Shown here: one piece after another, positions 13,660-52,870 of the stretch
How positions within the stretch are numbered: the first letter of the stretch is position 1
Layout: each line of letters opens with the position of its first letter
Sequence record: MZ868638.1
Length of the DNA stretch: 64,000 nt
Source of the DNA: Escherichia phage vB_EcoM-pEK20
Reading direction: 5' to 3' (one strand)
Notes under the pieces: generated by a model
Database searches by the model: none
Told to the model about the DNA's origin: nothing
What the model saw: only the letters and a program-made list of their open reading frames with translations
Position numbers and translations under genes: made by a program

Positions 13660-13667
13660 AGGTAAAC

Positions 13668-26493: not shown

Positions 26494-26664
26494 ATGCAAG
26501 TTAAATTATTGTACCGTTTATTAAAAAATGGCAAGCATGATTGGTATTTGCTTATTAAAACCGATCCGAATTTTTTCTCTGGACAACCATTTACAGTTCG
26601 TCCTACTAAACGTCAGCTTCGCAAAGCTAAACGTTCTCATCGTAACTTTTATAGAGAATATTGA
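26494..26664 (+). CDS. small basic protein, RPTKRQ-motif family (copy 1)
   Basis: C-terminus VRPTKRQLRKAKRSHRNFY. Confidence 0.4.
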   Translation: MQVKLLYRLLKNGKHDWYLLIKTDPNFFSGQPFTVRPTKRQLRKAKRSHRNFYREY

Positions 26665-26665
26665 T

Positions 26666-27079
26666 ATGAATATTTCTGAAACTCGCGGTAAATGGTTCAA
26701 GATTGTTAAAGAAGACGAAGAACTCCAAGATAAGTTTCCTGAATTAAAGAAAGATACGATCATCAAGGTAATTGGTACTACTACCGAAGATGGTTATGGC
26801 GACCATGGCATTATCGAAGTGATGTTGAACACAGGTGAGAAACTTTGCATCTATGACCGTGATACTTCTCTTTGGTGCTTCTGGGAATCCCATTCAATAG
26901 ATGAACTCGAAGAAATTGACCAAGTAGTTTGTGATGGTGGACTTGGCGAATTCAAAGGTGAACGTATTTCTTATGCTTTAGCTAAATTAGCCGCCCAAGA
27001 AAATAATGACGGTTATGAAGGTAATCTGATGCAAGCCGCAGCGGAATACATTGAATATTTAGAAAGACGTTTAAGTTAA
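26666..27079 (+). CDS. hypothetical acidic protein
   Basis: ATG at M47 of listed ORF 26528. Confidence 0.45.
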   Translation: MNISETRGKWFKIVKEDEELQDKFPELKKDTIIKVIGTTTEDGYGDHGIIEVMLNTGEKLCIYDRDTSLWCFWESHSIDELEEIDQVVCDGGLGEFKGERISYALAKLAAQENNDGYEGNLMQAAAEYIEYLERRLS

Positions 27080-27307: not shown

Positions 27308-27781
27308 ATGTTATTATCAGGCGCAAAATATAAAGAAGAAAAACAAAAATTTTATGATGCACAGAACGGTAAGTGTCCTATTTGCCACCGTGAATTAGAC
27401 CCTGATGTTCAAGGTAACCATCTTGACCACGACCACGAATTAAACGGGCCAAAAGCCGGTAGAGTTCGTGGATTACTCTGTAATCTGTGCAACGCAGCAG
27501 AAGGTCAAATGAAGCATAAGTTCAACCGTTCCGGTCTTAAAGGACGTGATGTCGACTACCTCGAATGGCTTGAAGCTCTTCTTGCTTATTTGAAACAAGA
27601 TTATTCTGATAATAATATCCATCCTAATTTTGTTCCAGACAAAACTAAAGAGTTCTCAAGACTAGGTAAAGAGGAAATGATGGCTGAGATGCTTCAAAGA
27701 GGATTTGAATATAATGAATCTGATACCAAAACACAATTAATAGCTTCATTCAAAAAGCAGCTTAGAAAGAGTTTAAAATGA
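27308..27781 (+). CDS. 49: endonuclease VII (Holliday junction resolvase)
   Basis: near-identical to T4 gp49 over whole length (CPICHREL...GLLCNLCNAAEGQ). Confidence 0.95.
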   Translation: MLLSGAKYKEEKQKFYDAQNGKCPICHRELDPDVQGNHLDHDHELNGPKAGRVRGLLCNLCNAAEGQMKHKFNRSGLKGRDVDYLEWLEALLAYLKQDYSDNNIHPNFVPDKTKEFSRLGKEEMMAEMLQRGFEYNESDTKTQLIASFKKQLRKSLK

Positions 27782-29595
27782 AAATTGAAAAAGAAATTGA
27801 AGGATTAATTCATAAAACTAATAAAGATCTTTTGAACGAGAATGCTAATAAAGATTCTCGTGTTTTTCCAACTCAACGGGACCTTATGGCTGGTATTGTG
27901 TCTAAGCACATTGCCAAAAATATGGTCCCGTCTTTTATTATGAAAGCACATGAAAGCGGAATTGTCCATTTCCATGATATTGATTATTCCCCTGCTCTTC
28001 CATTTACTAATTGCTGTTTAGTAGATTTAAAAGGAATGCTTGAAAACGGGTTTAAGCTAGGTAATGCTCAAATTGAAACGCCTAAATCGATTGGTGTTGC
28101 TACTGCAATTATGGCACAAATTACCGCACAGGTTGCTTCACATCAGTACGGCGGAACGACTTTTGCTAATGTAGATAAAGTACTTTCTCCTTATGTTAAA
28201 CGCACCTATGCAAAACATATTGAGGATGCAGAAAAATGGCAAATCGCTGATGCGTTGAATTATGCCCAATCTAAAACAGAAAAAGACGTATACGATGCAT
28301 TTCAAGCTTATGAGTATGAAGTAAATACTCTTTTTAGCTCAAACGGTCAAACGCCTTTTGTAACAATTACATTTGGTACTGGAACTGACTGGACTGAACG
28401 AATTATTCAGAAAGCAATTCTTAAAAACCGCATTAAAGGCCTTGGTCGTGATGGAATAACTCCTATTTTCCCTAAACTTGTTATGTTCATTGAAGAGGGT
28501 GTCAATCTTTATAAAGACGACCCGAACTATGATATTAAGCAGCTTGCTCTAGAGTGTGCAAGCAAAAGAATGTATCCTGATATTATTTCAGCTAAGAACA
28601 ATAAAGCTATCACTGGTTCATCTATTCCTGTTTCTCCAATGGGTTGTCGTAGTTTCTTGAGTGTATGGAAAGATTCGACTGGAAATGAAATTCTTGATGG
28701 ACGTAATAATCTTGGTGTTGTAACACTGAATCTTCCTCGTATTGCGTTAGATTCTTATATTGGAACACAATTCAATGAACAGAAATTTGTTGAGCTATTT
28801 AATGAACGAATGGATCTGTGTTTTGAAGCCTTGATGTGTAGAATTAGTTCTTTAAAGGGTGTTAAAGCAACAGTTGCTCCTATTCTTTACCAAGAAGGTG
28901 CATTTGGGGTTCGTCTTAAACCTGATGATGATATAATTGAGCTATTTAAAAACGGTAGAAGTTCAGTGTCTTTAGGATACATTGGTATTCACGAATTGAA
29001 TATTCTTGTCGGTCGTGATATTGGACAGGAAATTTTGACTAAAATGAATGCTCGTCTTAAGCAGTGGACTGAAAGAACCGGTTTTGCTTTTAGCTTGTAT
29101 TCTACTCCTGCTGAAAACCTGTGCTATCGCTTCTGTAAACTTGATACTGAAAAATATGGAAGTGTAAAAGATGTTACTGATAAAGGCTGGTACACTAATA
29201 GTTTCCATGTTTCAGTAGAAGAAAATATCACTCCGTTTGAAAAGATTTCTCGCGAAGCCCCATATCATTTCATTGCGACTGGCGGACACATTTCTTATGT
29301 TGAACTTCCTGATATGAAAAATAACCTAAAAGGTCTTGAGGCTGTCTGGGATTATGCTGCGCAACATTTAGATTATTTTGGTGTTAATATGCCAGTAGAT
29401 AAATGTTTTACGTGTGGAAGTACCCATGAAATGACTCCTACCGAAAACGGATTTGTTTGTTCTATTTGTGGAGAAACTGATCCTAAAAAGATGAACACAA
29501 TAAGAAGAACTTGTGGTTATCTTGGAAATCCTAACGAACGTGGATTTAATCTCGGCAAAAATAAAGAAATCATGCATAGGGTTAAACACCAATGA
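27778..29595 (+). CDS. nrdD: anaerobic ribonucleoside-triphosphate reductase
   Basis: 605 aa, glycyl-radical motif RTCGYLG and zinc-site cysteines at C-terminus; uninterrupted (no intron). Confidence 0.95.
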   Translation: MKIEKEIEGLIHKTNKDLLNENANKDSRVFPTQRDLMAGIVSKHIAKNMVPSFIMKAHESGIVHFHDIDYSPALPFTNCCLVDLKGMLENGFKLGNAQIETPKSIGVATAIMAQITAQVASHQYGGTTFANVDKVLSPYVKRTYAKHIEDAEKWQIADALNYAQSKTEKDVYDAFQAYEYEVNTLFSSNGQTPFVTITFGTGTDWTERIIQKAILKNRIKGLGRDGITPIFPKLVMFIEEGVNLYKDDPNYDIKQLALECASKRMYPDIISAKNNKAITGSSIPVSPMGCRSFLSVWKDSTGNEILDGRNNLGVVTLNLPRIALDSYIGTQFNEQKFVELFNERMDLCFEALMCRISSLKGVKATVAPILYQEGAFGVRLKPDDDIIELFKNGRSSVSLGYIGIHELNILVGRDIGQEILTKMNARLKQWTERTGFAFSLYSTPAENLCYRFCKLDTEKYGSVKDVTDKGWYTNSFHVSVEENITPFEKISREAPYHFIATGGHISYVELPDMKNNLKGLEAVWDYAAQHLDYFGVNMPVDKCFTCGSTHEMTPTENGFVCSICGETDPKKMNTIRRTCGYLGNPNERGFNLGKNKEIMHRVKHQ

Positions 29596-30062
29596 ATTAT
29601 GATAGATTTTATCCTTGCGATTTTGTGAATGGCCCTGGTTGCAGGGTCGTTCTTTTCGTTACAGGTTGTTTGCATAAATGCGAAGGGTGTTATAATAAAT
29701 CAACATGGAATGCTAGAAATGGTATTCCATTCACAGGTGAAACACTAGAGCAATTAATTGAATGTTTGAATAATGATTATATAGAAGGATTAACTATAAC
29801 TGGAGGAGACCCTCTCTATCCCGATAACAGAGATGTTGTTCATTGCATTGCTCAAACAGTAAAAAATCTTTATCCCAATAAAAGCATTTGGTTGTGGACA
29901 GGATATAAGTTTGAAGATATTAAACAACTAGAAATGCTTAAATATGTTGATGTTATTATTGATGGGAAGTATGAGAAAAATCTTCCGACCAAAAAACTGT
30001 GGCGAGGATCAGATAATCAGCGACTTTGGTCAAATACCGATGGGGTGTGGAAACATGATTAA
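29592..30062 (+). CDS. nrdG: anaerobic RNR activating enzyme (radical SAM)
   Basis: CxxxCxxC-type cluster CLHKCEGCYN; immediately downstream of nrdD. Confidence 0.9.
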   Translation: MNYDRFYPCDFVNGPGCRVVLFVTGCLHKCEGCYNKSTWNARNGIPFTGETLEQLIECLNNDYIEGLTITGGDPLYPDNRDVVHCIAQTVKNLYPNKSIWLWTGYKFEDIKQLEMLKYVDVIIDGKYEKNLPTKKLWRGSDNQRLWSNTDGVWKHD

Positions 30063-40312: not shown

Positions 40313-41275
40313 ATGATTACTATCAATTCCAAAGAACACATTCTAGAACAGAAATATCGTCCTTCTTCCATTGACGAATGTATTCTGCCTGCGTATGACC
40401 ATGAAACATTCAAGTCTTTAGTATCTAAAGGAAAACTTCCTCATATTATTTTGCACTCTCCTTCTCCTGGTACAGGTAAAACAACCGTAGCAAAAGCATT
40501 ATGTAATGATATCAATGCCGAAATGATGTTCGTCAACGGTTCTGATTGTAAGATTGATTTTGTGCGTGGTCCGTTAACCGCATTCGCTCGTTCAGTCTCA
40601 ATGGAAGGCAAGCCTAAAGTTATTGTTATTGATGAATTTGACCGTAGTGGCCTCGCCGAATCACAACGTCACCTTCGTACATTCATGGAAGAATTCTCTA
40701 GTAACTGCTCTATTATTATTACTGCTAACAACATCGATGGAATTATTGAACCATTACGTAGTCGTTGTCGAGTTATCGAATTCGGACGTCCAACCGAAGA
40801 AGATAAAATCTCGATGATGAAGAAAATGATTCATCGTATGGTTGAAATCTGTAAGAACGAAAATATCGAAATCGCTGATATGAAAGTTGTTGCAGCTCTG
40901 GTTAAAAAGAACTTCCCGGACTTTCGTCGCACAATTGGACAATTAGACCAGTACTCGTCTAAAGGTGTTCTTGATGCGGGTATTTTGTCTATCGTAACTA
41001 ATGACCGTGGCACGGTCTCTGATGTTATCGAAGCAATGAAGAACAAAGATATCAAACAGCTTCGTGCATTAGCTCCAAAATATGCCGCAGATTATTCATG
41101 GTTCATCGATAAATTAGTTTCAGAATGTTATGACCAAGTTGCACCTGGTAAAAGTATTATTTCGCTTTATGAAATTGCAGGCGAAAACAATAAGTTTCAT
41201 GGATTAGCAAGTAATATTGAATTACATGTTATGTATATGCTTCTTCAACTGACCTGCGAACTGACTTGGAAATAA
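40313..41275 (+). CDS. 44: clamp loader large subunit gp44 (AAA+)
   Basis: Walker A SPGTGKTT, Walker [12 protein letters not shown] motif. Confidence 0.95.
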
Positions 41276-42292: not shown

Positions 42293-45004
42293 ATGAAAGA
42301 ATTTTACTTAACGGTTGAACAGATTGGTGATTCAATTTTTGAACGTTACATCGATTCTAACGGTCGTGAACGTACTCGTGAAGTAGAATATAAACCATCA
42401 CTGTTTGCTCATTGTCCAGAAAGTCAGGCTACGAAATATTTCGATATCTACGGTAAGCCGTGTACTCGTAAGTTGTTCGCCAATATGCGTGATGCCTCCC
42501 AATGGATTAAACGCATGGAAGATATCGGACTTGAAGCACTTGGCATGGACGATTTCAAATTGGCGTATTTGTCCGACACTTATAACTATGAAATAAAATA
42601 CGACCATACAAAAATTCGTGTGGCTAACTTCGACATCGAAGTAACATCTCCAGATGGGTTCCCTGAGCCATCACAAGCAAAACATCCGATTGATGCTATC
42701 ACTCATTATGACTCAATTGACGACAGGTTCTACGTATTTGACCTTTTGAATTCTCCATACGGTAATGTAGAAGAATGGTCTATCGAAATTGCGGCTAAGC
42801 TTCAAGAACAAGGTGGTGATGAAGTTCCATCCGAAATTATCGATAAAATCATTTATATGCCGTTTGATAACGAAAAAGAATTGTTGATGGAATATCTCAA
42901 CTTCTGGCAACAGAAAACTCCTGTCATTTTGACTGGATGGAACGTTGAGTCATTTGATATTCCATATGTGTATAACCGAATCAAGAATATTTTTGGCGAA
43001 TCTACTGCGAAACGTTTATCACCACATCGTAAAACTCGTGTTAAAGTTATCGAAAACATGTATGGTTCTCGTGAAATCATTACATTGTTCGGTATCTCTG
43101 TTCTTGATTACATTGACCTTTACAAAAAATTCTCTTTTACCAATCAACCATCATATTCTCTGGATTACATTTCAGAATTTGAATTGAACGTTGGTAAACT
43201 GAAATATGACGGCCCTATTTCTAAGCTTCGTGAAAGCAATCACCAACGATATATTTCTTATAACATTATCGACGTATATCGTGTATTGCAAATTGACGCT
43301 AAGCGTCAGTTCATCAACTTGAGTTTGGACATGGGTTATTATGCTAAGATACAGATTCAATCTGTGTTTAGCCCAATTAAAACATGGGATGCTATTATTT
43401 TTAATAGCCTTAAAGAGCAGAACAAGGTGATTCCACAAGGTCGTTCTCACCCGGTTCAACCTTATCCAGGCGCTTTTGTTAAGGAACCTATTCCAAATCG
43501 GTACAAATATGTAATGAGTTTCGACCTTACATCTCTGTATCCAAGTATTATTCGCCAAGTGAATATTAGCCCAGAAACAATAGCAGGAACGTTTAAAGTA
43601 GCTCCATTGCATGATTATATTAACGCTGTTGCTGAACGTCCTTCTGATGTGTACAGTTGTTCTCCTAACGGCATGATGTATTATAAAGACCGTGACGGTG
43701 TTGTTCCAACTGAAATCACTAAGGTCTTTAATCAACGTAAAGAACATAAAGGTTACATGCTTGCAGCTCAACGTAATGGTGAAATAATTAAAGAGGCATT
43801 GCATAATCCTAATCTTTCTGTTGACGAACCATTAGATGTTGATTATCGTTTCGACTTCAGTGATGAGATTAAAGAAAAGATTAAAAAGTTGTCTGCTAAA
43901 TCTCTTAACGAAATGTTGTTTAGAGCTCAACGTACTGAAGTTGCAGGTATGACTGCCCAAATTAACCGTAAATTGCTTATCAACTCACTTTATGGTGCAC
44001 TTGGCAACGTTTGGTTCCGTTATTATGATTTGCGTAATGCTACTGCAATCACAACATTCGGGCAAATGGCTTTACAGTGGATTGAACGTAAAGTTAATGA
44101 ATATTTGAATGAAGTTTGTGGCACAGAAGGTGAAGCTTTCGTTCTTTATGGTGATACAGACTCTATTTACGTATCTGCTGATAAAATTATCGATAAGGTT
44201 GGTGAATCTAAATTCCGTGATACCAACCATTGGGTAGACTTCTTAGATAAGTTTGCACGTGAACGTATGGAACCAGCTATTGATAGAGGTTTCCGTGAAA
44301 TGTGTGAATACATGAACAATAAACAACACTTAATGTTCATGGACCGAGAAGCTATCGCTGGGCCTCCACTCGGTTCTAAAGGTATTGGTGGATTCTGGAC
44401 TGGTAAGAAACGTTATGCATTAAACGTGTGGGATATGGAAGGTACTCGTTACGCTGAGCCTAAACTCAAAATCATGGGTCTAGAGACTCAGAAATCTTCG
44501 ACTCCTAAAGCAGTACAGAAAGCTCTTAAAGAATGTATTCGTCGTATGCTTCAAGAAGGTGAAGAATCATTACAAGAATATTTTAAAGAGTTTGAAAAAG
44601 AATTCCGTCAATTGAATTATATTAGCATCGCGTCGGTATCTTCTGCGAATAACATTGCTAAATATGATGTAGGTGGATTCCCTGGTCCCAAATGCCCGTT
44701 CCATATTCGTGGAATTCTGACGTATAACCGGGCTATCAAAGGTAATATCGATGCACCACAAGTTGTAGAAGGTGAAAAAGTATATGTTCTGCCTTTACGT
44801 GAAGGAAACCCATTCGGTGATAAATGTATCGCATGGCCTTCTGGTACTGAAATCACAGATTTAATTAAAGACGATGTACTTCATTGGATGGACTACACTG
44901 TTCTCCTTGAGAAGACATTTATTAAACCACTTGAAGGATTCACATCAGCAGCGAAACTCGATTACGAGAAGAAAGCATCTCTGTTCGATATGTTCGATTT
45001 TTGA
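42293..45004 (+). CDS. 43: DNA polymerase gp43 (family B)
   Basis: 903 aa; exo motif FDIEV, pol motifs SFDLTSLYPSII, KILINSLYGALG, YGDTDS; N-terminus as I recall for RB69 gp43. Confidence 0.98.
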   Translation: MKEFYLTVEQIGDSIFERYIDSNGRERTREVEYKPSLFAHCPESQATKYFDIYGKPCTRKLFANMRDASQWIKRMEDIGLEALGMDDFKLAYLSDTYNYEIKYDHTKIRVANFDIEVTSPDGFPEPSQAKHPIDAITHYDSIDDRFYVFDLLNSPYGNVEEWSIEIAAKLQEQGGDEVPSEIIDKIIYMPFDNEKELLMEYLNFWQQKTPVILTGWNVESFDIPYVYNRIKNIFGESTAKRLSPHRKTRVKVIENMYGSREIITLFGISVLDYIDLYKKFSFTNQPSYSLDYISEFELNVGKLKYDGPISKLRESNHQRYISYNIIDVYRVLQIDAKRQFINLSLDMGYYAKIQIQSVFSPIKTWDAIIFNSLKEQNKVIPQGRSHPVQPYPGAFVKEPIPNRYKYVMSFDLTSLYPSIIRQVNISPETIAGTFKVAPLHDYINAVAERPSDVYSCSPNGMMYYKDRDGVVPTEITKVFNQRKEHKGYMLAAQRNGEIIKEALHNPNLSVDEPLDVDYRFDFSDEIKEKIKKLSAKSLNEMLFRAQRTEVAGMTAQINRKLLINSLYGALGNVWFRYYDLRNATAITTFGQMALQWIERKVNEYLNEVCGTEGEAFVLYGDTDSIYVSADKIIDKVGESKFRDTNHWVDFLDKFARERMEPAIDRGFREMCEYMNNKQHLMFMDREAIAGPPLGSKGIGGFWTGKKRYALNVWDMEGTRYAEPKLKIMGLETQKSSTPKAVQKALKECIRRMLQEGEESLQEYFKEFEKEFRQLNYISIASVSSANNIAKYDVGGFPGPKCPFHIRGILTYNRAIKGNIDAPQVVEGEKVYVLPLREGNPFGDKCIAWPSGTEITDLIKDDVLHWMDYTVLLEKTFIKPLEGFTSAAKLDYEKKASLFDMFDF

Positions 45005-45044: not shown

Positions 45045-45680
45045 ATGAAAACTACTCCTATTACTATCGCTATTGACGCAATCATAAAACAAGCTTCTTC
45101 TTTGGCCGCTATGGCCAAAGTAATTAGTCAAAACCCTGCTCGTTATAATGCTATTCTAGAAACTCTTCGACGCCCGGGACTTAGTAATTATGAAAGTCGT
45201 GTAATTATTACAGGTGTGGGTAAGAATGCTAATATTGCAACTAAAGCTTCTGAGACATTTGCTTCACTTGGTATCCCGAGTATGTACTTGAACACCGGGC
45301 ATTATTCTCACGGTGATGCAGGATTCATTGCGCCTAATGATGTGTTGATTCATATTAGTCGTTCTGGTAAAACTGAAGAAATGATAGGCGTGGCTAAGCA
45401 TCTTAAAATGATTCGTCCGAACGTCAAACAGATTCTGTTGCATTGTAACCCAGACATTCCACAAGAAAATGAAGCCCTTTTTGATTACTCTTTCTGTACA
45501 GGCATCGCAGTAGAGGTTGATGAGAATTCTCTGGCTCCGACTATGTCCACTACATTGTTGTTAGCGCTTATCGATACGTTTGCTATCAACCTTTCGTCTG
45601 AACGTGGATTTACCTCTAATGACTTCCTTAAGTTCCACCCTGGCGGTGCACTAGGTGCCATGTTACGAGGCGAACAATGA
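45045..45680 (+). CDS. SIS-domain sugar-phosphate isomerase (arabinose-5-phosphate isomerase-like, no CBS domains)
   Basis: SIS motifs VIITGVGKNANIATKA, LIHISRSGKTEE and KpsF/KdsD-type FHPGGALG. Confidence 0.75.
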   Translation: MKTTPITIAIDAIIKQASSLAAMAKVISQNPARYNAILETLRRPGLSNYESRVIITGVGKNANIATKASETFASLGIPSMYLNTGHYSHGDAGFIAPNDVLIHISRSGKTEEMIGVAKHLKMIRPNVKQILLHCNPDIPQENEALFDYSFCTGIAVEVDENSLAPTMSTTLLLALIDTFAINLSSERGFTSNDFLKFHPGGALGAMLRGEQ

Positions 45681-45820
45681 AAGCAATAACAATAGGACTT
45701 TTACTATTGATGCTTGTCATGACTATCTACTGGAGCTTAACGGCTCCAGTAATGATTCCGACTCTTATAATCGGATGGATTATGATTGGACTACAAGCAA
45801 AGTATGAATGCTTTAACTAG
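45677..45820 (+). CDS. tiny hydrophobic protein (47 aa)
   Basis: ATGA overlap with SIS stop; single TM segment; not in track. Confidence 0.3.
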   Translation: MKAITIGLLLLMLVMTIYWSLTAPVMIPTLIIGWIMIGLQAKYECFN

Positions 45821-45833
45821 AATAGTGTACAAT
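45809..45833 (+). promoter_or_regulatory. middle promoter (MotA box) upstream of nucleotidyltransferase-kinase gene
   Basis: TGCTTTA 45809-45815, 12-nt spacer, tacaat 45828-45833. Confidence 0.55.
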
Positions 45834-45861
45834 ACTCCTACTTACCAATGAGGACCACAAC

Positions 45862-47550
45862 ATGAAAAAAGCTGTTATTCTTGGTGCTGGACTGGCAACT
45901 CGTTTGTATCCAATAACGCATCATATTCCTAAGGTGCTTGTTAACTATAAACAAGACACTATTCTGAGCAATTTGTATACAATTTATTCTGACCTTGGCG
46001 CAGATGAAATTATTGTAGTAGTTCATTCAAAATTTGCTGAAACTGTTCGAGCTTATTGTGAGCAAGAAGGGTTCAATGTGACTATTCGTACAGTTGATGA
46101 AGCGTATGGTTCCGCTTATGCTCTTGCTAAATTACACAAAGATTTAGACGGCCATAATGTAATTGTTAACTGGTGTGATATTATTCCCGATTTTGGTTCA
46201 TGGTCTTGGAATGTTAACGCAATCTATGTTAAGGGCGACGAATGTCGTTATAATTTCGACGGTGAAAATATCACTAACGTAGGTTCAACAGGTGGTAATG
46301 TTGTAGGAATTTATCAGTTCAAAGACTGGGAATTCTATATGGGTTCTACTGATGAGGAAATTCATGAATACTGCAAAGGACGTGATTTCGTAGAATTCCT
46401 TTACGGCAGCGCATTCAATAAATCAGAGCTTATGAATATCATCGACCTTGGTGATATGCCTAAACTTGAAAAAGCTCATGAAGTTCGTGAACTTAATCGT
46501 AGTTTTAATGCAGTTGAAATTGGCGAAGAAACGGTAACAAAGATTGCTTTAACAGAACAGGGCGTTGCACTTCAAAAAGATGAAGTCAATTGGTATAAGA
46601 AAGTTAAATCAGATTCAGTTCCACGGATTGTAAGTTATCATCCTGGCGGCCACTTTATTATGGAACGCATTAAAGGTAAGCCAGCATTTGAATATATTAA
46701 ATCCAAATCGAGTCTTGCTCGTCCACAAATTGTTGATGCAATTTTAGACGCACTGAAATTCAGCACAGACACTTATTTTGTAAGTCCTGAAACTGTTCGT
46801 CGTGATTTCACTAAAGAATTCTATACGAAAGTTATTGATCGTTGTGAAAGTATTCAACCATTGATTGATTCATTTGGTAAAATCACACATGTGAACTACA
46901 CTAAGATTGGGCGTCTGAAGCCAATGCTGAAACAAGCTTTAGAACACCTTATTCGTTATCATAACCGTTCTCAGGGACAGTACTCTGTTATTCATGGTGA
47001 CCCGAACTTCAGTAATACTATGATTACTGATAATGGTGAAGTCAAGTTTATCGACCCTCGTGGATATTTTGGTGAAACCAAGATTTATGGGCCAAAATTG
47101 TATGATGAAGCTAAAGTGCTTTATGCTGTTTCAGGTTATGATGAATTCAACGCTAATCCGACCTGGGGTCAGTTTACTATTGATGAAACAACTTGTAATG
47201 TGACTATTAACATCAATCCATTAGTTTACAAATATGGAAAGATGAGTTCGTTTAATGAGTATCATCATTTGGCTGTAGCAATTATCTGGATTGCATTAGG
47301 TGGTTATTTCAAGAATAATCCACTTAAAGCGGTAGCCGCATATTATAAAGGTATGGAACTTCTGACTAAGCAATTACGTAACATGGGCCGTGTACTTCAG
47401 GACGGCACTATTAGTTATGATGTAGCAGAACCTGTAACGGCTACTCTGATTACAAAAAATCCTGGTAAATGGGTACTAACTGATAAAGAAACTGGTGTTT
47501 CTTATCGTCCAATCGGTGGCGATATCACTCATCAATGGGAACGAATCTAA
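45862..47550 (+). CDS. bifunctional sugar-1-phosphate nucleotidyltransferase / anomeric sugar kinase
   Basis: N-terminal GAGLATRLYPIT (RmlA/GlmU-type NT); C-terminal HGDPNFSNTMI...IDPRG (APH/choline-kinase-type kinase). Confidence 0.7.
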   Translation: MKKAVILGAGLATRLYPITHHIPKVLVNYKQDTILSNLYTIYSDLGADEIIVVVHSKFAETVRAYCEQEGFNVTIRTVDEAYGSAYALAKLHKDLDGHNVIVNWCDIIPDFGSWSWNVNAIYVKGDECRYNFDGENITNVGSTGGNVVGIYQFKDWEFYMGSTDEEIHEYCKGRDFVEFLYGSAFNKSELMNIIDLGDMPKLEKAHEVRELNRSFNAVEIGEETVTKIALTEQGVALQKDEVNWYKKVKSDSVPRIVSYHPGGHFIMERIKGKPAFEYIKSKSSLARPQIVDAILDALKFSTDTYFVSPETVRRDFTKEFYTKVIDRCESIQPLIDSFGKITHVNYTKIGRLKPMLKQALEHLIRYHNRSQGQYSVIHGDPNFSNTMITDNGEVKFIDPRGYFGETKIYGPKLYDEAKVLYAVSGYDEFNANPTWGQFTIDETTCNVTININPLVYKYGKMSSFNEYHHLAVAIIWIALGGYFKNNPLKAVAAYYKGMELLTKQLRNMGRVLQDGTISYDVAEPVTATLITKNPGKWVLTDKETGVSYRPIGGDITHQWERI

Positions 47551-47936
47551 TGCACCGTGTAGAAAACATGCTTAATCTTTGTTTTGATGTCGATGATTGT
47601 ATAACAGAGTGGAATAACAACCGTGATTACGTGAACTTCAAACCAGACGTCGAAATGGTGACTGCCATTAATGCCCTGTACGATGCAGGGCATACCATAA
47701 CGCTTTACACTGCTCGCGGTATGAAGTCAGTCGGTCCTGGTCGTATAGCAATTGACATTCTCCCAAGTCTGATTCAGAACTTGGCAAACATTGGATTGAA
47801 GTACCATAATTTGCTAACACATAAACCAGTATATGATTGGATTATCGACGACAAAGCTATGCGTCCTGACGAATTCAAAGCTCTTATGAATAAAGGCGAA
47901 TTCGAAACATTTAAATCGTATAAACCGAATCTATAA
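47550..47936 (+). CDS. HAD-superfamily phosphatase
   Basis: motif I LCFDVDDCIT at N-terminus; ATG overlapping upstream stop. Confidence 0.6.
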   Translation: MHRVENMLNLCFDVDDCITEWNNNRDYVNFKPDVEMVTAINALYDAGHTITLYTARGMKSVGPGRIAIDILPSLIQNLANIGLKYHNLLTHKPVYDWIIDDKAMRPDEFKALMNKGEFETFKSYKPNL

Positions 47937-47992
47937 TAATTTAAGTAAGACCTGCAAAAACCATCGCGTCAATTAACGTGAGATGCAAAAAA

Positions 47993-49153
47993 ATGAATAC
48001 TTTTAAAATCGGAACGAATTTTGATTTAGCTCTTCTTGATAAAATCGTAGAGCTCAATAAAACTTATCCTAATAGCTTGATAAACGAAGTATACGGCTCT
48101 ACAAGAGAAATGGCTTTTGTAGCAGCCAGACCTGATTTTAGGCTTCCTGACGTTGACAAAAAGATGTTAGAAGATTACGTTAAACGTTGTAACGAATTAG
48201 GTATTTGCTTTAACTATACACTCAACACGATAAATCCTGGTTCAAAAAGAGAACTAGTTGAGTGGAAGAAGAAAGCTATTCAGGATTATGTTCAGTATCT
48301 TTGGTCAATAGGCGTATGGCGTATTACTATCGCTAACCCTGTTGTTATGGAAATTGTTCGTGAAGTCAATAAAGACATTGAGATTGAAGTTTCAACAATT
48401 CTACATGTCGATGCTGTAACTCAAATCAAATACTTGCATGACCAGTATAATATCAAAAAGGTCTGCTGTGGAATTCATAAGAACCGTTCGGTTTCTTTCC
48501 TGAAGCGTGCAGCAGAGTTTTGCAATAAGAACAATATAATATTTGAAGTTCTTGTAAATGAGTTCTGTTCTAATGCTGGTAAAGGGTATACAACACATTG
48601 TAGCTATCGTGACTCTTGCTATATTTTCCATAGTACTGATGTTACCGCTGATGATGCTAAATCCTTAAATGGATATCCAATGCAACACTGCATTAAAGCT
48701 CGTGATACAGATCCATTTAACTGGTTGAGAACTCGTTTTGTTCGTCCTCAAGATTTGAAACTTTATAATGATATTGGTATCACTCAATTCAAAGTTTCAG
48801 GACGTACAGGTAGCACAGACTACATTTTGAAAGTTCTTGAAGCTTATGCTTCCGAAAAATTTGAAGGTAATTTGTTGGAATTGTGGAAGCCTTTAGAGAC
48901 CATTTTCACTCTTGAAAATGAGACCGAGTTTTCACATACGGTAAATATTGAAACCTCTTTGTTAGATGGCTTTTTAGAAAAAAGGTGGTTCAGACATCCA
49001 GATTTCGATTGTGCTAATGAAATCTGTGGGACGACGTGTACATATTGTGAAAGATATTATAAACGTCAATTATCTAAAAATGGGTTATCAGAAAACTCTA
49101 TATCTATTATTGATATAACTAACTCTGACGACGCTTTGAGGTACCCAGAATGA
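47993..49153 (+). CDS. peptidase-U32-family-like protein (putative Fe-S/radical enzyme), function unknown
   Basis: LGICFNYTLNT, NEFCSNAGKGYTTHC and FKVSGRTGSTDYILKVLEAY resemble U32 family motifs; C-terminal Cys cluster CGTTCTYC. Confidence 0.4.
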   Translation: MNTFKIGTNFDLALLDKIVELNKTYPNSLINEVYGSTREMAFVAARPDFRLPDVDKKMLEDYVKRCNELGICFNYTLNTINPGSKRELVEWKKKAIQDYVQYLWSIGVWRITIANPVVMEIVREVNKDIEIEVSTILHVDAVTQIKYLHDQYNIKKVCCGIHKNRSVSFLKRAAEFCNKNNIIFEVLVNEFCSNAGKGYTTHCSYRDSCYIFHSTDVTADDAKSLNGYPMQHCIKARDTDPFNWLRTRFVRPQDLKLYNDIGITQFKVSGRTGSTDYILKVLEAYASEKFEGNLLELWKPLETIFTLENETEFSHTVNIETSLLDGFLEKRWFRHPDFDCANEICGTTCTYCERYYKRQLSKNGLSENSISIIDITNSDDALRYPE

Positions 49154-49388
49154 TTTCTAGAAAAACTTTTAACCACCAACTTAATGAAGAGATTTTGACT
49201 ATGAAAATTAACAGCAACGAACAAATTCTTAAAAAGGCCCTTATGGGCCTGTTTGAAACCAAAGCGGCTTAAAGTGATTAAAGAACCTGTTCAATTGTAA
49301 TACTACGCTGATGCATTTCTTCATAGTGTCCTTGGAAGTATCGATGCCGAAGCTCTACGTTATATCAACATCGCTAAGAAATTCAAAT

Positions 49389-49413
49389 AAGCTTTATGAA
49401 TTGAGTATATAAT
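49389..49413 (+). promoter_or_regulatory. middle-type promoter upstream of gene 42
   Basis: aGCTTTA 49390-49396, 11-nt spacer, tataat 49408-49413. Confidence 0.45.
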
Positions 49414-49432
49414 AAATTGTATTGAGGTAAAC

Positions 49433-50149
49433 ATGGGAAAACATAACACAATGAAATATATTAAAGCCGCAGATTTTCAATCCGCATTTAAAGCTGTCAA
49501 TCGTGAAATTTTAGAAAACCCGGAATTCGTAACTGATTCTCGTATTGGACGTTGTAATGAAATTGGGTCTATGACAGTAGTTGTTGACACTCCATCATCA
49601 TTCAAAATGACCGACCCACGTATTAACCGCATCTCTTATGAATATGCTGAAGACTTCTGGAAGTTTATGGTTTCTGGTGGTACTGATGCAGAAGAAGCAT
49701 TTAAGGCATATCCTAACGTTGCTAAATTTATTTCTAAACCTAAATCAGACGCTTTGCCTGCAAACTTCAACACTTTCTACGGTCCACGAATTGCGGCCCA
49801 ATTACCAGCTCTTTTAAAAGAACTTAAAGAGAAGCCTAACTCTCGAAGAGTTGTGTTTCAAATTCTTGAAAGTTCTGATCAGGCTTTGCTTGATTCGGAC
49901 GAAACGCTTGAATATCCATGTACTGACTCAGTGACTTATTATATTCGTGATGGTAAGCTTTATACCCACTGCCATATGCGTTCTCAGAACTGTGCTGTTG
50001 TTATGCAGTTGGATTTTTATCTCCAAGGAAAATTACTTCATTATATCGCTAACGAATGTGGTGTAGAAGTTGGTGATTATACTCATACCATGGTAAGTGC
50101 CCATGTGTTTGAACGTGATTTTGATTATGTTAAAGGATTCCTTGACTAA
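49433..50149 (+). CDS. 42: dCMP hydroxymethylase
   Basis: thymidylate-synthase-like motifs PNSRRVVFQI and TDSVTYYIRDGKLYTHCHMRSQN parallel T4 gp42. Confidence 0.9.
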   Translation: MGKHNTMKYIKAADFQSAFKAVNREILENPEFVTDSRIGRCNEIGSMTVVVDTPSSFKMTDPRINRISYEYAEDFWKFMVSGGTDAEEAFKAYPNVAKFISKPKSDALPANFNTFYGPRIAAQLPALLKELKEKPNSRRVVFQILESSDQALLDSDETLEYPCTDSVTYYIRDGKLYTHCHMRSQNCAVVMQLDFYLQGKLLHYIANECGVEVGDYTHTMVSAHVFERDFDYVKGFLD

Positions 50150-51048
50150 TGGCTATTTTCCGCGTACCTATCTTGAGTATGCGGTCTTATGAAACTGGAC
50201 AGTATGCTATCCTTAAGGATGGCAACTTCCAACTTCATTTGCACCGTGCTAATCCAGGTGATGTGATTACATATCCACGTAATGCATCTGATATTAAAGA
50301 ATGTGAACGTCTTTTCCCAGAATTTAAGTTTGTTCCATTATGGTATAAAGATAACGCGTATAACACTCGTAAATATTTCTGGTCTGAAAATGAATTTGTG
50401 GTTGATTCATTAATTGCTTATTATGATTGTGATTTTCTAATAACAGATATCACTGGATATGATGGTGCTTTTGATGTAGAATTCAATTTCAATATCACCG
50501 CAGACCCTAATAAACCGCGTTTTTATATTGACGAATTCTTAAAAACCGACATGTTGTCGGTTAATCGTTCACTTCAAACTACTGTGTTGAATGAACGTCA
50601 AAAGGAAGTGCTGGTTAACGCTGGTGCGGATGGTAATAAGATTATCGTAACGCAGAAAGTTATACGTCCTTCCATCATGCAGCGTCTTGTAGGTGATTTG
50701 GCTCCTATTCATCTAGATGGTATTTTTCATCCATTTCGAATTAGTGACCCGTGCTATCGTTTTGAACAAGTGGTTGAATGTGCAATTCAATTAGGCCAAC
50801 CGCTTTATATAACCGATCCAAATAATAGCTTCGACAGAAATAAGTATCCTGAAGAAGCGCTGATTCGAATTTTTAAACCAACTAAAACCGAGTACTATCA
50901 AATTCTTAAAGGACGTCCAAAGATTCAATATTTCGAAAATCCTGAAGAAGTATTCCATCCAGGTCTTGGTGAGTTCATCTACTTTAATGCTTTAATTTCT
51001 TCGCCGTATAATATACCTAAATACGAAGATGTCGTAATCGAGGAATAA
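50149..51048 (+). CDS. hypothetical protein in the beta-glucosyltransferase slot (candidate hmC glycosyltransferase)
   Basis: 299-aa ORF between 42 and uvsX; no similarity to T4 Bgt noted; assignment by synteny only. Confidence 0.3.
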   Translation: MAIFRVPILSMRSYETGQYAILKDGNFQLHLHRANPGDVITYPRNASDIKECERLFPEFKFVPLWYKDNAYNTRKYFWSENEFVVDSLIAYYDCDFLITDITGYDGAFDVEFNFNITADPNKPRFYIDEFLKTDMLSVNRSLQTTVLNERQKEVLVNAGADGNKIIVTQKVIRPSIMQRLVGDLAPIHLDGIFHPFRISDPCYRFEQVVECAIQLGQPLYITDPNNSFDRNKYPEEALIRIFKPTKTEYYQILKGRPKIQYFENPEEVFHPGLGEFIYFNALISSPYNIPKYEDVVIEE

Positions 51049-51049
51049 A

Positions 51050-51598
51050 ATGGCTAAAATTATTTTAGTAGATGGCCCGGATAATGCTGGTAAAACAACT
51101 TTCATTAATGACATAATGGAAATTAGTGAAAGATATGTAAAGATTGATTTCCCTAAACGAACGGTTGATGGACGTTTCGATGTTAAGTCTCGAAATGAAG
51201 TTGGCTGTTTCGAAACGATGCTGAATTATTTAGACCCTACTAAGATTTATCTGTTAGATCGTGGATATATTAGTAACTGGGTTTACGGACGTATTCGACA
51301 AGATGCGGACTCGGTTCTTGACGTTTATGAACAGGATTATGTTCGTCTTTGCCAAAACCATGATGTGTTCACAATTATTTTAACACGTAACGAAATGACT
51401 GAAAGTTTTGAAGACGACCTTATTACTTTGTCTTCATTCGGTTTTAATACAGTAATTTCATATTTTGAAGAGTTTGCAATCCATAACGAAATCCAAACGT
51501 ATCAATTACTTAATCATGATGGTGCTAACAAAGTTATAGGATTTAATGCAAGCGAACGTAATAATTTGATTACAGAAATTATCAAATGGGCTCGTTAA
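51050..51598 (+). CDS. P-loop kinase-like protein
   Basis: Walker A VDGPDNAGKTT; LLDRGY resembles nucleotide-kinase DRx motif. Confidence 0.5.
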   Translation: MAKIILVDGPDNAGKTTFINDIMEISERYVKIDFPKRTVDGRFDVKSRNEVGCFETMLNYLDPTKIYLLDRGYISNWVYGRIRQDADSVLDVYEQDYVRLCQNHDVFTIILTRNEMTESFEDDLITLSSFGFNTVISYFEEFAIHNEIQTYQLLNHDGANKVIGFNASERNNLITEIIKWAR

Positions 51599-51697: not shown

Positions 51698-52870
51698 ATG
51701 TCTGATTTAAAATCTCGTCTGATTAAAGCTTCTACTTCTAAAATGACTGCAGACTTGACTAAGTCTAAGTTGTTTAATAATCGCGATGAAGTCCCTACTC
51801 GTATTCCGATGTTGAATATTGCATTAGGTGGTGCACTGAATGCTGGGTTGCAATCAGGCTTAACTATTTTTGCTGCTCCTTCTAAACACTTTAAAACGTT
51901 GTTTGGACTGACCATGGTTGCAGCATATATGAAGAAATATAAAGATGCAATTTGTTTGTTCTATGATTCAGAATTTGGTGCTTCAGAATCTTATTTTCGT
52001 TCGATGGGTGTTGATTTAGACCGTGTAGTTCATACTCCGATTCAATCTGTCGAACAACTTAAAGTTGATATGACTAATCAGCTTGACGCGATTGAACGCG
52101 GTGATAAAGTTATTATCTTTATCGATTCAATTGGTAATACTGCATCTAAGAAAGAAACCGAAGATGCGTTGAACGAGAAAGTTGTAGGTGATATGTCTCG
52201 TGCTAAGGCACTTAAATCTCTGTTCCGCATTGTGACTCCTTATCTGACTATTAAAGATATTCCGTGTGTTGCAATCAACCATACAGCAATGGAAATTGGC
52301 GGACTATATCCTAAAGAGATTATGGGTGGTGGTACAGGTATTCTTTACTCTGCTAACACTGTATTCTTTATCTCTAAACGTCAGGTTAAAGAAGGTACAG
52401 AATTGACCGGTTATGACTTCACGTTGAAAGCAGAAAAATCTCGTACAGTTAAAGAGAAATCTACTTTCCCAATCACAGTCAATTTCGATGGCGGTATCGA
52501 CCCATTCAGTGGCTTGTTAGAAATGGCAACTGAAATTGGTTTTGTAGTTAAGCCTAAAGCCGGGTGGTATGCTCGAGAATTCCTTGACGAAGAAACAGGC
52601 GAAATGATTCGTGAAGAGAAATCATGGCGTGCTAAAGCTACTGATTGTGTAGAATTCTGGGGACCGTTGTTTAAACACAAACCTTTCCGAGATGCAATTG
52701 AAACTAAATATAAACTAGGTGCTATCTCTTCTATTAAAGAAGTCGATGACGCTGTTAACGACCTTATTAATTGCAAAGCAACAACTAAAGTTCCGGTTAA
52801 AACTTCTGATGCTCCGTCTGCAGCAGATATAGAAAACGACCTTGACGAAATGGAAGATTTCGATGAATAA
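51698..52870 (+). CDS. uvsX: recombinase UvsX (RecA-like)
   Basis: 390 aa; RecA-fold motifs; matches T4 UvsX. Confidence 0.95.
   Translation: MSDLKSRLIKASTSKMTADLTKSKLFNNRDEVPTRIPMLNIALGGALNAGLQSGLTIFAAPSKHFKTLFGLTMVAAYMKKYKDAICLFYDSEFGASESYFRSMGVDLDRVVHTPIQSVEQLKVDMTNQLDAIERGDKVIIFIDSIGNTASKKETEDALNEKVVGDMSRAKALKSLFRIVTPYLTIKDIPCVAINHTAMEIGGLYPKEIMGGGTGILYSANTVFFISKRQVKEGTELTGYDFTLKAEKSRTVKEKSTFPITVNFDGGIDPFSGLLEMATEIGFVVKPKAGWYAREFLDEETGEMIREEKSWRAKATDCVEFWGPLFKHKPFRDAIETKYKLGAISSIKEVDDAVNDLINCKATTKVPVKTSDAPSAADIENDLDEMEDFDE

Follow-up and report, generated by a model that had tools for sequence, protein, structure and literature searches.

Which sugar is activated by the genes lying between the DNA polymerase gene and a ThyA-family gene of Escherichia phage vB_EcoM-pEK20, which DNA base receives it, and do all of these genes contribute to that task? 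In the window, meaning the whole 64,000-nucleotide stretch analysed (record MZ868638.1), four same-strand open reading frames occupy exactly positions 45045-49153, flanked by gp43 (42293-45004) and the ThyA-family gene (49433-50149). A preliminary description had placed four adjacent frames there, with coordinates that proved exact, and profile searches returned the families it had named, namely SIS, NTP-transferase plus APH-like kinase, HAD, and Peptidase_U32. The window derives from a Mosigvirus, RB69 or a very near relative, its DNA polymerase being identical to RB69 gp43 at 903 of 903 residues, and the region shares 98.7% DNA identity with phage HY126.

Gene set and order are identical to those described for HY126 (He et al., Nat Chem Biol 2026) and for RB69 gp45-gp55 (Lee et al., NAR 2026; Thomas et al., Viruses 2018), and represent the same system. 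Per-protein identities amount to 95-100%, or 98-100% if the AfhF frame is started at ATG 47550, without substantial differences among the clusters. The region is a published cluster for arabinosyl-cytosine (RB69 gp45-55; HY126 AfhE/AfhF), worked out between 2018 and 2026, and the four-gene finding is therefore already known. The cluster makes activated arabinose for decorating the phage's own DNA cytosines, and as a functional unit it reaches past 49153, the whole of it spanning 45045-51598. With high confidence, we regard the region studied as the sugar-activation half of the arabinosyl-5-hydroxycytosine DNA hypermodification cluster known from RB69-like Mosigviruses, and virtually nothing speaks against this identification. 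The U32 protein may serve a separate, O2-independent route.

Route to the activated sugar

The first gene (45045-45680, + strand) encodes a SIS-only arabinose-5-phosphate isomerase, homologous to RB69 gp55 and identical to RB69 ORF055c at 211 of 211 residues, with an HPGGALG motif close to its C-terminus. It matches Pfam SIS (1e-10) and PHROG 5670 'arabinose 5-phosphate isomerase' (4e-116), as well as the NCBIfam models KpsF/GutQ (2e-32) and KdsD (7e-31), in both cases under the trusted cut-offs because CBS domains are absent. From its family and PMC13326640, this protein is predicted to turn ribulose-5-P into arabinose-5-P.

The AfhE homolog (45862-47550, +; RB69 gp52:53) is identical to HY126 AfhE at 559 of 562 residues, and shows an NTP_transferase match at residues 3-99 (9.6e-10) and sub-threshold kinase matches only in its C-terminal half (APH, 0.0045; Fructosamin_kin, 0.0038). 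The AfhF homolog (47550-47936, +; RB69 gp51) is a small HAD phosphatase, identical to its HY126 counterpart at 127 of 128 residues; its longest frame begins at 47535, and the ATG at 47550, which overlaps the AfhE stop, agrees with the HY126 annotation. The profile search gave no Pfam match for it, a match under the cut-off to NCBIfam TIGR01689 'capsule biosynthesis phosphatase' (4.6e-13) and one to PHROG 1238 (8e-43), and its sequence contains FDVDDC, the HAD motif I. For HY126 AfhF, PMC13326640 reports a phosphatase activity that depends on Mg2+.

According to He et al. 2026, as relayed in PMC13326640, the APH-like kinase domain of AfhE phosphorylates D-arabinofuranose-5-P at C1 to Ara-1,5-P2, AfhF removes the 5-phosphate to leave Ara-1-P, and the N-terminal nucleotidyltransferase domain of AfhE joins Ara-1-P with UTP into UDP-Araf, HY126 AfhE and AfhF being reported to prepare UDP-arabinose starting from Ara5P. 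This route was demonstrated on near-identical proteins elsewhere and, judged by identity, the window homologs would follow it: ribulose-5-P would be isomerized by the SIS protein to Ara-5-P, which the AfhE kinase domain would convert to Ara-1,5-P2, AfhF to Ara-1-P and the AfhE nucleotidyltransferase domain to UDP-Araf. The phage-encoded NDP-pentose pathway proposed in the preliminary description is in this way borne out as an RB69-like UDP-D-arabinofuranose route from ribulose-5-P.

Activated heptose, made on an NDP-heptose route by GmhA/HldE/GmhB analogues, had been offered as an alternative product, and the step logic of that route does recur here: as in the ADP-heptose pathway (GmhA, HldE, GmhB), there are a SIS isomerase, an anomeric kinase acting on a sugar phosphate, a HAD bisphosphate phosphatase and a nucleotidyltransferase fused to the kinase, and the HAD gene bears the label 'phosphoheptose isomerase' in both PHROG and RefSeq. 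Nonetheless, the SIS protein belongs to the KpsF/KdsD type, matching KpsF/GutQ/KdsD (2e-32) rather than GmhA, and the module kinase domain is APH-like, unlike the ribokinase-type fold of the HldE kinase domain. The substrate is moreover a pentose, the nucleotide is UDP and not ADP, the product goes to DNA and not to LPS, and arabinose is the sugar that the DNA carries (PMC13326640, PMC13390438), so that heptose as the activated sugar has next to no probability.

The modified base and the downstream genes

The gene at 49433-50149 (+), called gene 42 in the preliminary description and taken there for a dCMP hydroxymethylase, encodes a ThyA-superfamily protein (Thymidylat_synt, 2.4e-15) identical at 236 of 238 residues to RB69 gp48, which makes 5-hydroxy-dCMP and not hmC in a flavin- and O2-dependent reaction (PMC13326640); that assignment is thus not kept. 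The homolog carries LEYPC and RSQN...LD, that is, L143E, D169N and N177D. By itself, the ThyA homolog yields 5hodC in aerobic E. coli (PMC13326640). NMR, MS and 18O2 work identified 5-hydroxycytosine with a direct ether link together with a 5hodCMP synthase, the acceptor base being 5-hydroxycytosine, to which arabinose is joined by that ether link (PMC13326640; PMC13390438).

The GT-B glycosyltransferase that follows (50149-51048, +; RB69 gp46:47), a putative DNA arabinosyltransferase 1, has 299 residues, 297 of them identical in HY126, and gave no Pfam or NCBIfam match; its AF2 model (pLDDT 94.2) best matches MshA (3c4q; E 1.3e-6, TMq 0.63), further UDP-sugar GT-B enzymes ranking next. With near-identical proteins, 5hoC is first incorporated into DNA and then arabinosylated there by GT-B transferases. 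The last gene (51050-51598, +; RB69 gp45) encodes a P-loop thymidylate-kinase-like nucleotide kinase (PHROG 761 'thymidylate kinase', 5e-45), identical to that of HY126 at 182 of 182 residues.

The four genes had been read as producing NDP-arabinose through free arabinose, for glycosylation of hmC supplied by a gp42-type dCMP hydroxymethylase. The domain families are compatible with such a scheme, and a 2018 paper on RB69 did propose ara-hmC (PMC6024577), but the later nucleoside structure, a 5-hydroxycytosine ether, contradicts it (PMC13326640; PMC13390438). Passage through free arabinose disagrees with the order reported in PMC13326640, where the kinase comes first and the phosphatase acts on the 1,5-bisphosphate, and Acinetobacter phages arabinosylate without U32. 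Glycosylation of DNA cytosines is retained from this reading, hmC as their acceptor is not, and the scheme as a whole is very unlikely.

The arrangement recalls the T4 hmC-glucose system (gp42, gp1, gp56, alpha- and beta-glucosyltransferases), in which a ThyA-superfamily enzyme likewise makes a C5-oxygenated dCMP, the modified dCMP is incorporated and the DNA glycosylated after replication, and the genes share the slot between genes 43 and uvsX. It differs in using 5-hydroxy-C rather than hydroxymethyl-C and flavin/O2 rather than folate, and in that the sugar nucleotide is supplied by the phage itself, since UDP-arabinose is absent from the host (PMC13326640).

The U32-family protein

The fourth gene (47993-49153, +; RB69 gp50; longest frame from GTG 47978) encodes a U32-family protein (Peptidase_U32, PF01136, 7.5e-11) identical to that of HY126 at 386 of 386 residues, the best fold match of its AF2 model (pLDDT 90) being PDB 5d88. 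Among the four E. coli U32 paralogs compared, only RlhA, the 23S rRNA 5-hydroxycytidine synthase with product ho5C2501, aligns well (hhalign 82.6%, E 1e-5). Ten Cys are invariant in its family; C208 and C214 align with RlhA C169 and C176, so that the CX6CX15CX3-4C pattern of U32 hydroxylases is half conserved, with only two of the four canonical cluster cysteines aligned, and the remaining invariant ones lie elsewhere, including an extra C-terminal CX4CX3CX2C. At 391 aa against 653 aa, the phage protein is shorter and the C-terminal half of RlhA is missing.

The preliminary description had counted this protein as a member of the sugar pathway. It is not needed for the sugar route, because it is absent from Acinetobacter phages that share the API-AfhE-AfhF-ThyAh-GT-kinase set, and AfhE plus AfhF of HY126 are reported to make UDP-arabinose out of Ara5P (PMC13326640). 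We put at roughly even odds that it is, outside the sugar branch, a prephenate-dependent, O2-independent pyrimidine C5 hydroxylase. It would then provide a second, O2-independent route to a 5-hydroxy pyrimidine nucleotide, as an Fe-S enzyme with prephenate as oxygen donor, the mechanism proposed for RlhA, TrhP and UbiU/V, and would let the phage go on modifying its DNA in an anoxic host, much as NrdD/NrdG, also encoded in the window, back the aerobic reductase. T4-like phages indeed carry both O2-dependent and O2-independent enzymes (NrdAB and NrdDG) for one dNTP-supply step, although their chemistry and protein families are unrelated to those of the ThyA homolog/U32 pair. Genetic work has established prephenate as a requirement or O-donor of U32 hydroxylases (PMC10990095; PMC5727448), none of which has yet been reconstituted in vitro as a hydroxylase (PMC10990095). 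With RlhA (ho5C2501), TrhP (ho5U34) and UbiU/UbiV, each of which has an O2-dependent counterpart (TrhO, UbiI/H/F), the phage protein shares the PF01136 domain, conserved Cys, a link to prephenate supply, here through chorismate mutase or DAHPS neighbours, and, in facultative anaerobes, coexistence with an O2-dependent enzyme giving the same product. The proposed phage substrate, by contrast, would be a deoxynucleotide or DNA, and not RNA or a quinone. If true, this would be an unrecognised oxygen-free way of making hydroxylated cytosine. The accessible literature offers no explanation of the gene's role, and He et al. 2026 or Mahler et al. 2025 may assign one.

U32 was detected in 221 phage records; their hosts are Enterobacterales or Shewanella throughout, and none falls below 80% identity. 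AfhE turned up in 373 records, 57 of them from Acinetobacter, a strict aerobe; in DLP1, the HAD gene directly abuts the ThyA homolog. Serratia phage LC53 carries a CM_2 chorismate mutase between U32 and the ThyA homolog, the same gene being present in 54 phage records, and in 6 of 30 unrelated lineages a DAHP synthase or DAHPS-CM fusion is at most two genes away from U32. Among 30 non-T4-like U32 lineages, a GT1 homolog (19), a kinase (20) or AfhE (11) was found within 10 kb, the Kin-GT-U32 triad recurring; none showed a ThyA-family gene within that distance, though one could be located beyond 10 kb in uncultivated contigs, and E. coli ThyA is recognised by the same HMM at 1e-9. Matches in eight GTDB genomes fall in Lachnospiraceae, Romboutsia (2), Erysipelotrichales, Bacillota, Tannerella, Phocaeicola and BRC1, all of which we take, by taxonomy only, to be anaerobes or likely anaerobes. 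These patterns suggest that U32 stands in for the ThyA-type synthase beside the same kinase and glycosyltransferase in these 30 other lineages, including phages or prophages of obligate anaerobes.

That U32 is instead a sugar-branch enzyme, for instance tailoring the pentose or interconverting ring forms, seems improbable. Its gene directly follows AfhF, public annotations call it 'putative enzyme involved in UDP-arabinose biosynthesis' or 'sugar or heterocycle reductase', and in some non-T4 loci it adjoins SIS, AfhE and KdsC-like genes. Besides the reported synthesis of UDP-arabinose from Ara5P by AfhE and AfhF, however, it is missing not only from Acinetobacter clusters but also from E. coli Dhakaviruses such as JS98, which have the pathway; it occurs without SIS or AfhE in Kin-GT-U32 triads and bacterial Gmk::MTase-U32 cassettes; and the linked chorismate mutase or DAHPS has no role in pentose chemistry. 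We likewise hold it unlikely that U32 is a prephenate-dependent rRNA/tRNA hydroxylase (RlhA/TrhP-like, acting on host or phage RNA) or a genuine peptidase unrelated to DNA modification, even if its closest characterised paralog, RlhA, acts on rRNA and the family name 'peptidase' is used in phage record annotations. The missing half of RlhA speaks against this, as does the setting, inside a DNA-modification cluster in every lineage, with neighbours such as NMP kinases, MazG-like or dCTPase-like proteins, dCMP deaminase, NT5C, dNK and DNA glycosyltransferases; in the T4-like group, every phage found to have U32 carries AfhE as well.

The hydroxylase role favoured here has its own counterweights, namely the half-conserved cluster Cys, the lack of chorismate mutase in RB69-like phages (window included), the Dhakavirus pathway without U32, and the aerobic sufficiency of the ThyA homolog (PMC13326640).

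Small reading frames and a promoter-like site

At 49150-49272 (+) lies a 40-aa homolog of RB69 ORF049c (79 aa), truncated in the window and HY126 relative to the RB69 record; alignment with both phages reveals a +1 insertion as well as a new stop codon. It sits where related phages have chorismate mutase, and was rejected as such an enzyme (HMM score -0.2 bits). A hydrophobic 47-aa frame (45677-45820, +) overlaps the SIS stop codon, is identical at 47 of 47 residues to an annotated CDS of HY126, and has a counterpart in LC53 annotated 'transmembrane segment(s)'.

The MotA-type middle promoter said to precede the module is not found as described, since ahead of 45045 there is only TGaTATAAT, a 4/7 match to the MotA box. 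A consensus match, TGCTTTA-N12-TACAAT (TGCTTTAACTAGAATAGTGTACAAT; 45809-45833, +), marks a middle-promoter-like site within the module, upstream of its second gene, the AfhE homolog; the pattern TGCTTNA-N11-13-TANNNT occurs 17 times in the window, where 3.8 occurrences are expected.

Gene order and the arabinosyl-5-hydroxycytosine cluster

This part of the window shows a T4-type arrangement with all its ORFs on the + strand. The gp44 gene (40313-41275) is followed by those for gp62 and RegA, the gp43 DNA polymerase gene (42293-45004) directly precedes the module of four ORFs at 45045-49153, and a ThyA-family gene (49433-50149), a 299-aa ORF (50149-51048), a 182-aa P-loop ORF (51050-51598) and UvsX (51698-52870) come after it. 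Megablast with 45045-49153 returned 154 phage records covering at least 80% of the query, Escherichia phage HY126 being the best match (98.7% over 100%). Upon protein comparison, the polymerase was identical to RB69 gp43 at 903/903 positions, and likewise to the HY126 protein, the SIS protein was identical to RB69 gp55 at 211/211 and the ThyA homolog to RB69 gp48 at 236/238. Identities to the HY126 proteins were 559/562 for the AfhE-type fusion protein, 127/128 for the small HAD protein, 386/386 for the U32 protein, 297/299 for the 299-aa glycosyltransferase (GT) and 182/182 for the kinase-like protein. This near-identity indicates that the window is RB69 or a very close Mosigvirus. GC is flat across the module (0.33-0.40), and thus base composition does not mark it as a recent foreign insert.

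The four ORFs that the preliminary description placed at 45045-49153 do exist, and profile searches back the family assignment of each. The SIS isomerase carries the HPGGALG motif (Pfam SIS, 1e-10; KpsF/GutQ, 2e-32; KdsD, 7e-31; PHROG 'arabinose 5-phosphate isomerase', 4e-116) and is of the SIS-only form, without a CBS pair. For the 562-aa protein, described as a nucleotidyltransferase fused to an APH-type kinase, the first half was confirmed (NTP_transferase, residues 3-99, 9.6e-10), whereas the C-terminal half gave sub-threshold Pfam matches to APH, fructosamine kinase and EcKL, and nothing more. The HAD phosphatase assignment agrees with TIGR01689 'capsule biosynthesis phosphatase' (4.6e-13, below the cut-off), PHROG 1238 and the HAD motif FDVDDC, the Pfam profile search returning no match for this small ORF.

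Together with the genes that follow them, these ORFs provide the components of the cluster for arabinosylated 5-hydroxycytosine (ara-5hoC): the predicted arabinose-5-P isomerase (SIS), AfhE (NTP_transferase plus APH-like domain, HY126 identity), the HAD phosphatase AfhF (TIGR01689, DxD motif, HY126 identity), a putative GT-B DNA arabinosyltransferase (AF2 model of the 299-aa protein) and a ThyA homolog with the 5hodCMP-synthase signature. Arabinosylated 5-hydroxy-dC has been demonstrated in the DNA of RB69, HY126 and NP (PMC13326640, PMC13390438). Arabinose on RB69 DNA was found by Thomas et al. 2018, who put forward two members of an eight-gene module lying between the genes of the polymerase and UvsX, ORF055c and the fused ORF053_052c, as UDP-arabinose genes (PMC6024577). 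Thus, phage-made NDP-arabinose for DNA glycosylation is a correct reading that was already in print (Thomas 2018; Lee 2026; He 2026 via Lee).

As cited from He et al. 2026 in PMC13326640, HY126 AfhE is bifunctional, acting as an Ara-5-P kinase giving Ara-1,5-P2 and as a UDP-arabinose pyrophosphorylase, and AfhF is a Mg2+-dependent phosphatase yielding Ara-1-P. The proposed route via free arabinose is wrong, the reported order being Ara-5-P to Ara-1,5-P2 to Ara-1-P (PMC13326640). This order shares the logic of the ADP-heptose pathway (GmhA/HldE/GmhB), an NDP-heptose route having been offered as an alternative, but the phage substrate is a pentose. Moreover, the SIS protein is KdsD-like and not GmhA-like (its best matches are KpsF/KdsD/GutQ, with no GmhA model among the matches listed), and the kinase matches are to APH, fructosamine-kinase and EcKL instead of the ribokinase-type kinase of HldE.

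The ThyA-family gene had been taken for dCMP hydroxymethylase (gene 42), with hmC as the acceptor. On the contrary, it encodes a homolog of RB69 gp48, which makes 5-hydroxy-dCMP; 18O2 labels the product, and the enzyme binds flavin (PMC13326640). The base is 5-hydroxycytosine with mono- or di-arabinose in ether linkage, as determined by MS and NMR, and arabinosylation takes place on DNA (Lee et al. 2026, PMC13326640). An independent 2026 paper calls the earlier hmC assignment for RB69 erroneous (PMC13390438). In the window protein, LEYPC and RSQN..LD correspond to the signature L143E, D169N and N177D (E. coli numbering), with residues mapped according to the structural alignment of PMC13326640; MAFFT alignment of ThyA homologs puts a 2-residue gap there and fails to recover the D169N/N177D register as published. 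The 299-aa GT gave no Pfam, NCBIfam or PDB-sequence match, even when searched as a family profile. It was identified by its structure model alone, the AF2 model (pLDDT 94.2) matching the retaining GT-B enzyme MshA (3c4q; E 1.3e-6, TMq 0.63) and then other UDP-sugar GT-B proteins. Judging from coordinate offsets, a second transferase (RB69 gp3) would fall outside the window.

The module is therefore the published system, and its initial reading, mostly right yet superseded, had the wrong base and the wrong sequence of steps. As stated, that finding is a rediscovery, adding mainly that a sequence-only reader can recognise such a pathway. Within this otherwise known system, the U32 gene is a worthwhile, testable lead.

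Family and gene neighbours of the U32 protein

The U32 protein (47993-49153), homolog of RB69 gp50, contains the PF01136 catalytic domain (Peptidase_U32, 7.5e-11, 42 bits versus a cut-off of 22.4), and its AF2 model (pLDDT 90.3) is closest to the U32 structure 5d88; a phmmer search of PDB sequences gave no match. Of the E. coli U32 paralogs, RlhA alone gives a significant alignment to the phage family (hhalign 82.6%, E 1e-5, 204 columns), alignments with UbiU, TrhP and UbiV being insignificant (5.7%, 7.8% and 0.5%). RlhA is required for 5-hydroxycytidine 2501 of 23S rRNA. Genetic work shows that RlhA needs prephenate, which has been demonstrated to donate the oxygen in the UbiU/V pathway; both depend on Fe-S clusters (PMC5727448; PMC10990095), and as of PMC10990095 none of the U32 enzymes had been reconstituted in vitro. 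RlhA, TrhP, UbiU and UbiV have a [4Fe-4S]-binding four-Cys motif, whereas the phage protein has two of those four Cys and others elsewhere. Phage C208 and C214 correspond in the alignment to RlhA C169 and C176, but RlhA C192 and C196 have no aligned phage Cys, and thus the canonical CX6CX15CX3-4C is matched at two positions. Ten Cys are invariant in the phage family, a C-terminal CX4CX3CX2C motif among them; the eight beyond C208/C214 include C197, C238 and C345/350/354/357.

By tblastn, the AfhE homolog was found in 373 phage records, 57 of them Acinetobacter phages, and the U32 homolog in 221, all with at least 80% identity and all with Enterobacterales or Shewanella hosts. AfhE is only 42-73% identical in the same phages, as seen in Proteus Pm5461 (U32 82% vs AfhE 42%) and Shewanella Thanatos (82% vs 54%). 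The difference points to an unusually strong constraint on U32 or to its recent horizontal spread among T4-like phages.

ORFs were then called in a set of 62 U32 loci (47 viral contigs, several metagenome contigs, 8 GTDB contigs, reference phages and the window) and searched with profiles seeded from window proteins. The ThyA homolog is carried by 17/17 T4-like loci, all forming one cluster at 80% identity. The remaining loci represent 30 non-T4-like lineages, none of which (0/30) showed a ThyA-family gene within ~10 kb of U32 by profile search; as positive control, the ThyA profile detects E. coli ThyA at 1e-9, and precomputed Pfam lists for five loci (L001, L002, L010, L011 and L012) agree. 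Homologs of the GT were present in 19 of these lineages, of the kinase in 20, of AfhE in 11, of SIS in 8 and of chorismate mutase or DAHP synthase in 6, and a kinase-GT-U32 triad recurs among them. This constant partnership with a nucleoside-monophosphate kinase points to a nucleotide-level substrate. A MazG/dUTPase_2-like protein lies just upstream of the triad in L032 and L056, dCMP deaminase, a Tmk-like kinase and a MazG-like protein neighbour U32 in L001, and in bacterial contigs U32 comes after a guanylate-kinase::methyltransferase fusion.

Chorismate mutase adjoins U32 in 13-14 of the 17 T4-like loci. The ara-5hoC phage LC53 of Serratia encodes it as a 114-aa protein (CM_2, 1.7e-11) between U32 and the ThyA homolog; its homologs occur in 54 phage records, every genus being a U32 carrier, usually with genes annotated 'peptidase' and 'thymidylate synthase' on either side. 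The window and other RB69-like phages have no chorismate mutase, the slot being occupied by an unrelated small ORF, truncated in the window. In unrelated uncultivated phages, the U32-adjacent gene is DAHP synthase (L010, 10145-10891; L027), and a DAHP synthase-chorismate mutase fusion adjoins U32 in L038, L040, L041, L043 and L052 (~11100-12200). The phage DAHP synthases are of type I-beta, alone or with a C-terminal chorismate mutase, at most two genes from U32; both enzymes are encoded by shikimate-pathway genes serving as phage auxiliary genes. That the DAHP_synth_1 neighbours might be KDO-8-P synthases, which use Ara-5-P, was rejected on scores of 6e-48 and 3e-70 for DAHPS models versus 4e-15 and 3e-17 for KDO8PS.

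Other U32 loci differ in content. L001, a 466-kb contig of megaphage size, encodes at 944-11086 one block with MazG-like, radical SAM/SPASM, Tmk-like kinase, UDG, PolIII-alpha and U32 proteins, as well as dCMP deaminase and a 402-aa GT-like protein (weak QTMAN_N match). The bacterial cassette, conserved across Phocaeicola faecalis, Tannerella, BRC1 and a Bacillota MAG (L069:3044-7137, L068:7192-11083, L067:6929-11068, L064/L002), consists of GP88 (PF17338), the guanylate-kinase::SAM-methyltransferase fusion, an unassigned ~265-aa protein and U32, and may serve to hydroxylate and O-methylate nucleotides. In L002 it is accompanied by NT5C, a PnuC-like transporter, dNK, radical SAM/SPASM, a second U32 and nucleoside 2-deoxyribosyltransferase. 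L011 and L035 (~7000-15200) carry the kinase, GT, U32, a TAGT-like (Tet-associated) glycosyltransferase, dUTPase/DCD and UDP-galactopyranose mutase, with no TET or ThyA homolog in that stretch, which suggests a galactofuranosyl hydroxy-pyrimidine DNA modification.

Oxygen and the role of the U32 protein

Sequence and gene context give an even chance, in our estimate, that U32 (RB69 gp50) is an Fe-S, prephenate-dependent and O2-independent 5-hydroxy-pyrimidine-nucleotide synthase, which would make it a DNA-precursor enzyme of a new type. RB69-like phages infecting facultative anaerobes would have it as a reserve for the O2/flavin-dependent ThyA-type 5hodCMP synthase and would depend on host PheA/TyrA for prephenate. 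For many uncultivated phages of obligate anaerobes, U32 alone would supply the hydroxyl group that DNA glycosylation requires; these phages carry MazG-like/kinase/GT/U32 modules, often together with a phage chorismate mutase or DAHP synthase. No statement linking phage U32 to 5hoC was found in the literature searched, which did not include He et al. 2026 or Mahler et al. 2025; Lee et al. 2026 table RB69 gp50 as a 'sugar or heterocycle reductase', without discussion (PMC13326640).

The distribution of U32 was considered with regard to oxygen. U32 matches were found in 8 of 100,044 species genomes (GTDB), assigned to Erysipelotrichales, Bacillota, Lachnospiraceae, Romboutsia (2), Tannerella, Phocaeicola faecalis and BRC1, which are anaerobes or likely anaerobes. 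U32 without a ThyA-type synthase, sought within ~10 kb, occurs on contigs binned with obligate anaerobes, host physiology being inferred; U32 together with the O2-dependent synthase occurs in phages of facultative anaerobes; and the O2-dependent synthase without U32 occurs in phages of the strict aerobe Acinetobacter and in some E. coli phages. The published 5hoC route needs O2, though the window encodes an anaerobic ribonucleotide reductase at 27778-30062, comprising NrdD (PF13597, 1.7e-170) and its radical-SAM activase NrdG. These two genes indicate a phage built to replicate without O2. Upstream of them lie Endonuclease VII (27308-27781) and PinA (26528-27079).

A place in the sugar branch, as the fourth gene of that pathway, appears unlikely for U32, even though the family call itself was right and BASEL records label the protein 'putative enzyme involved in UDP-arabinose biosynthesis'. 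Acinetobacter phage DLP1 has genes for API, AfhE, HAD, ThyA homolog, GT and kinase in this order, with HAD abutting the ThyA homolog and U32 missing, while the related DLP3 still makes tri-arabinosylated 5hoC (PMC13326640); U32 is also absent from E. coli Dhakavirus JS98. It is likewise improbable that U32 hydroxylates RNA or is a protease; for a PrtC-type collagenase peptidase the family name is the sole evidence and no context points to a protease substrate.

If U32 does act as an O2-independent synthase of 5-hydroxy-pyrimidine nucleotides, this would (i) explain how gut phages replacing every cytosine continue without oxygen, (ii) give the U32 'organic O-donor' hydroxylases, which are poorly understood, a first deoxynucleotide/DNA substrate, and do so with a small soluble protein that lends itself to reconstitution in vitro, (iii) predict glycosylated 5-hydroxy-pyrimidine DNA in many uncultivated anaerobe phages, and (iv) account for shikimate-pathway genes in phages.

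Promoters and small ORFs of the module

A MotA-type middle promoter had been placed before the module, but the sole consensus site, TGCTTTA-N12-TACAAT at 45809-45833, lies upstream of the second gene; upstream of 45045, TGaTATAAT is accompanied by a poorly matching -30 element. The MotA-box-like pattern TGCTTNA-N11-13-TANNNT gave 17 matches in the window (11 on the + strand) versus 3.8 expected, including sites at 47117, within the AfhE gene, and at 50988, within the GT gene and upstream of the kinase gene. The late-promoter motif TATAAATA showed no enrichment and does not occur in the module, where sigma-70-like promoters and terminator-like sites are about as frequent as expected by chance.

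The gap between the U32 gene and the ThyA homolog (49154-49432) holds a 40-aa ORF (49150-49272) corresponding to the 5' half of the 79-aa RB69 ORF049c, shortened, as in HY126, by a one-base insertion and a TTGGAA-to-TTGTAA change. It could be a real pseudogene or reflect an error in the older RB69 record; a degenerate chorismate mutase was ruled out for ORF049c and its 40-aa remnant (-0.2 bits, no Pfam match). A further 47-aa, strongly hydrophobic ORF (45677-45820) overlaps the SIS stop codon, is identical in HY126 at 47/47 positions, and occupies the position of the imm superinfection-immunity gene in JS98 and T4.
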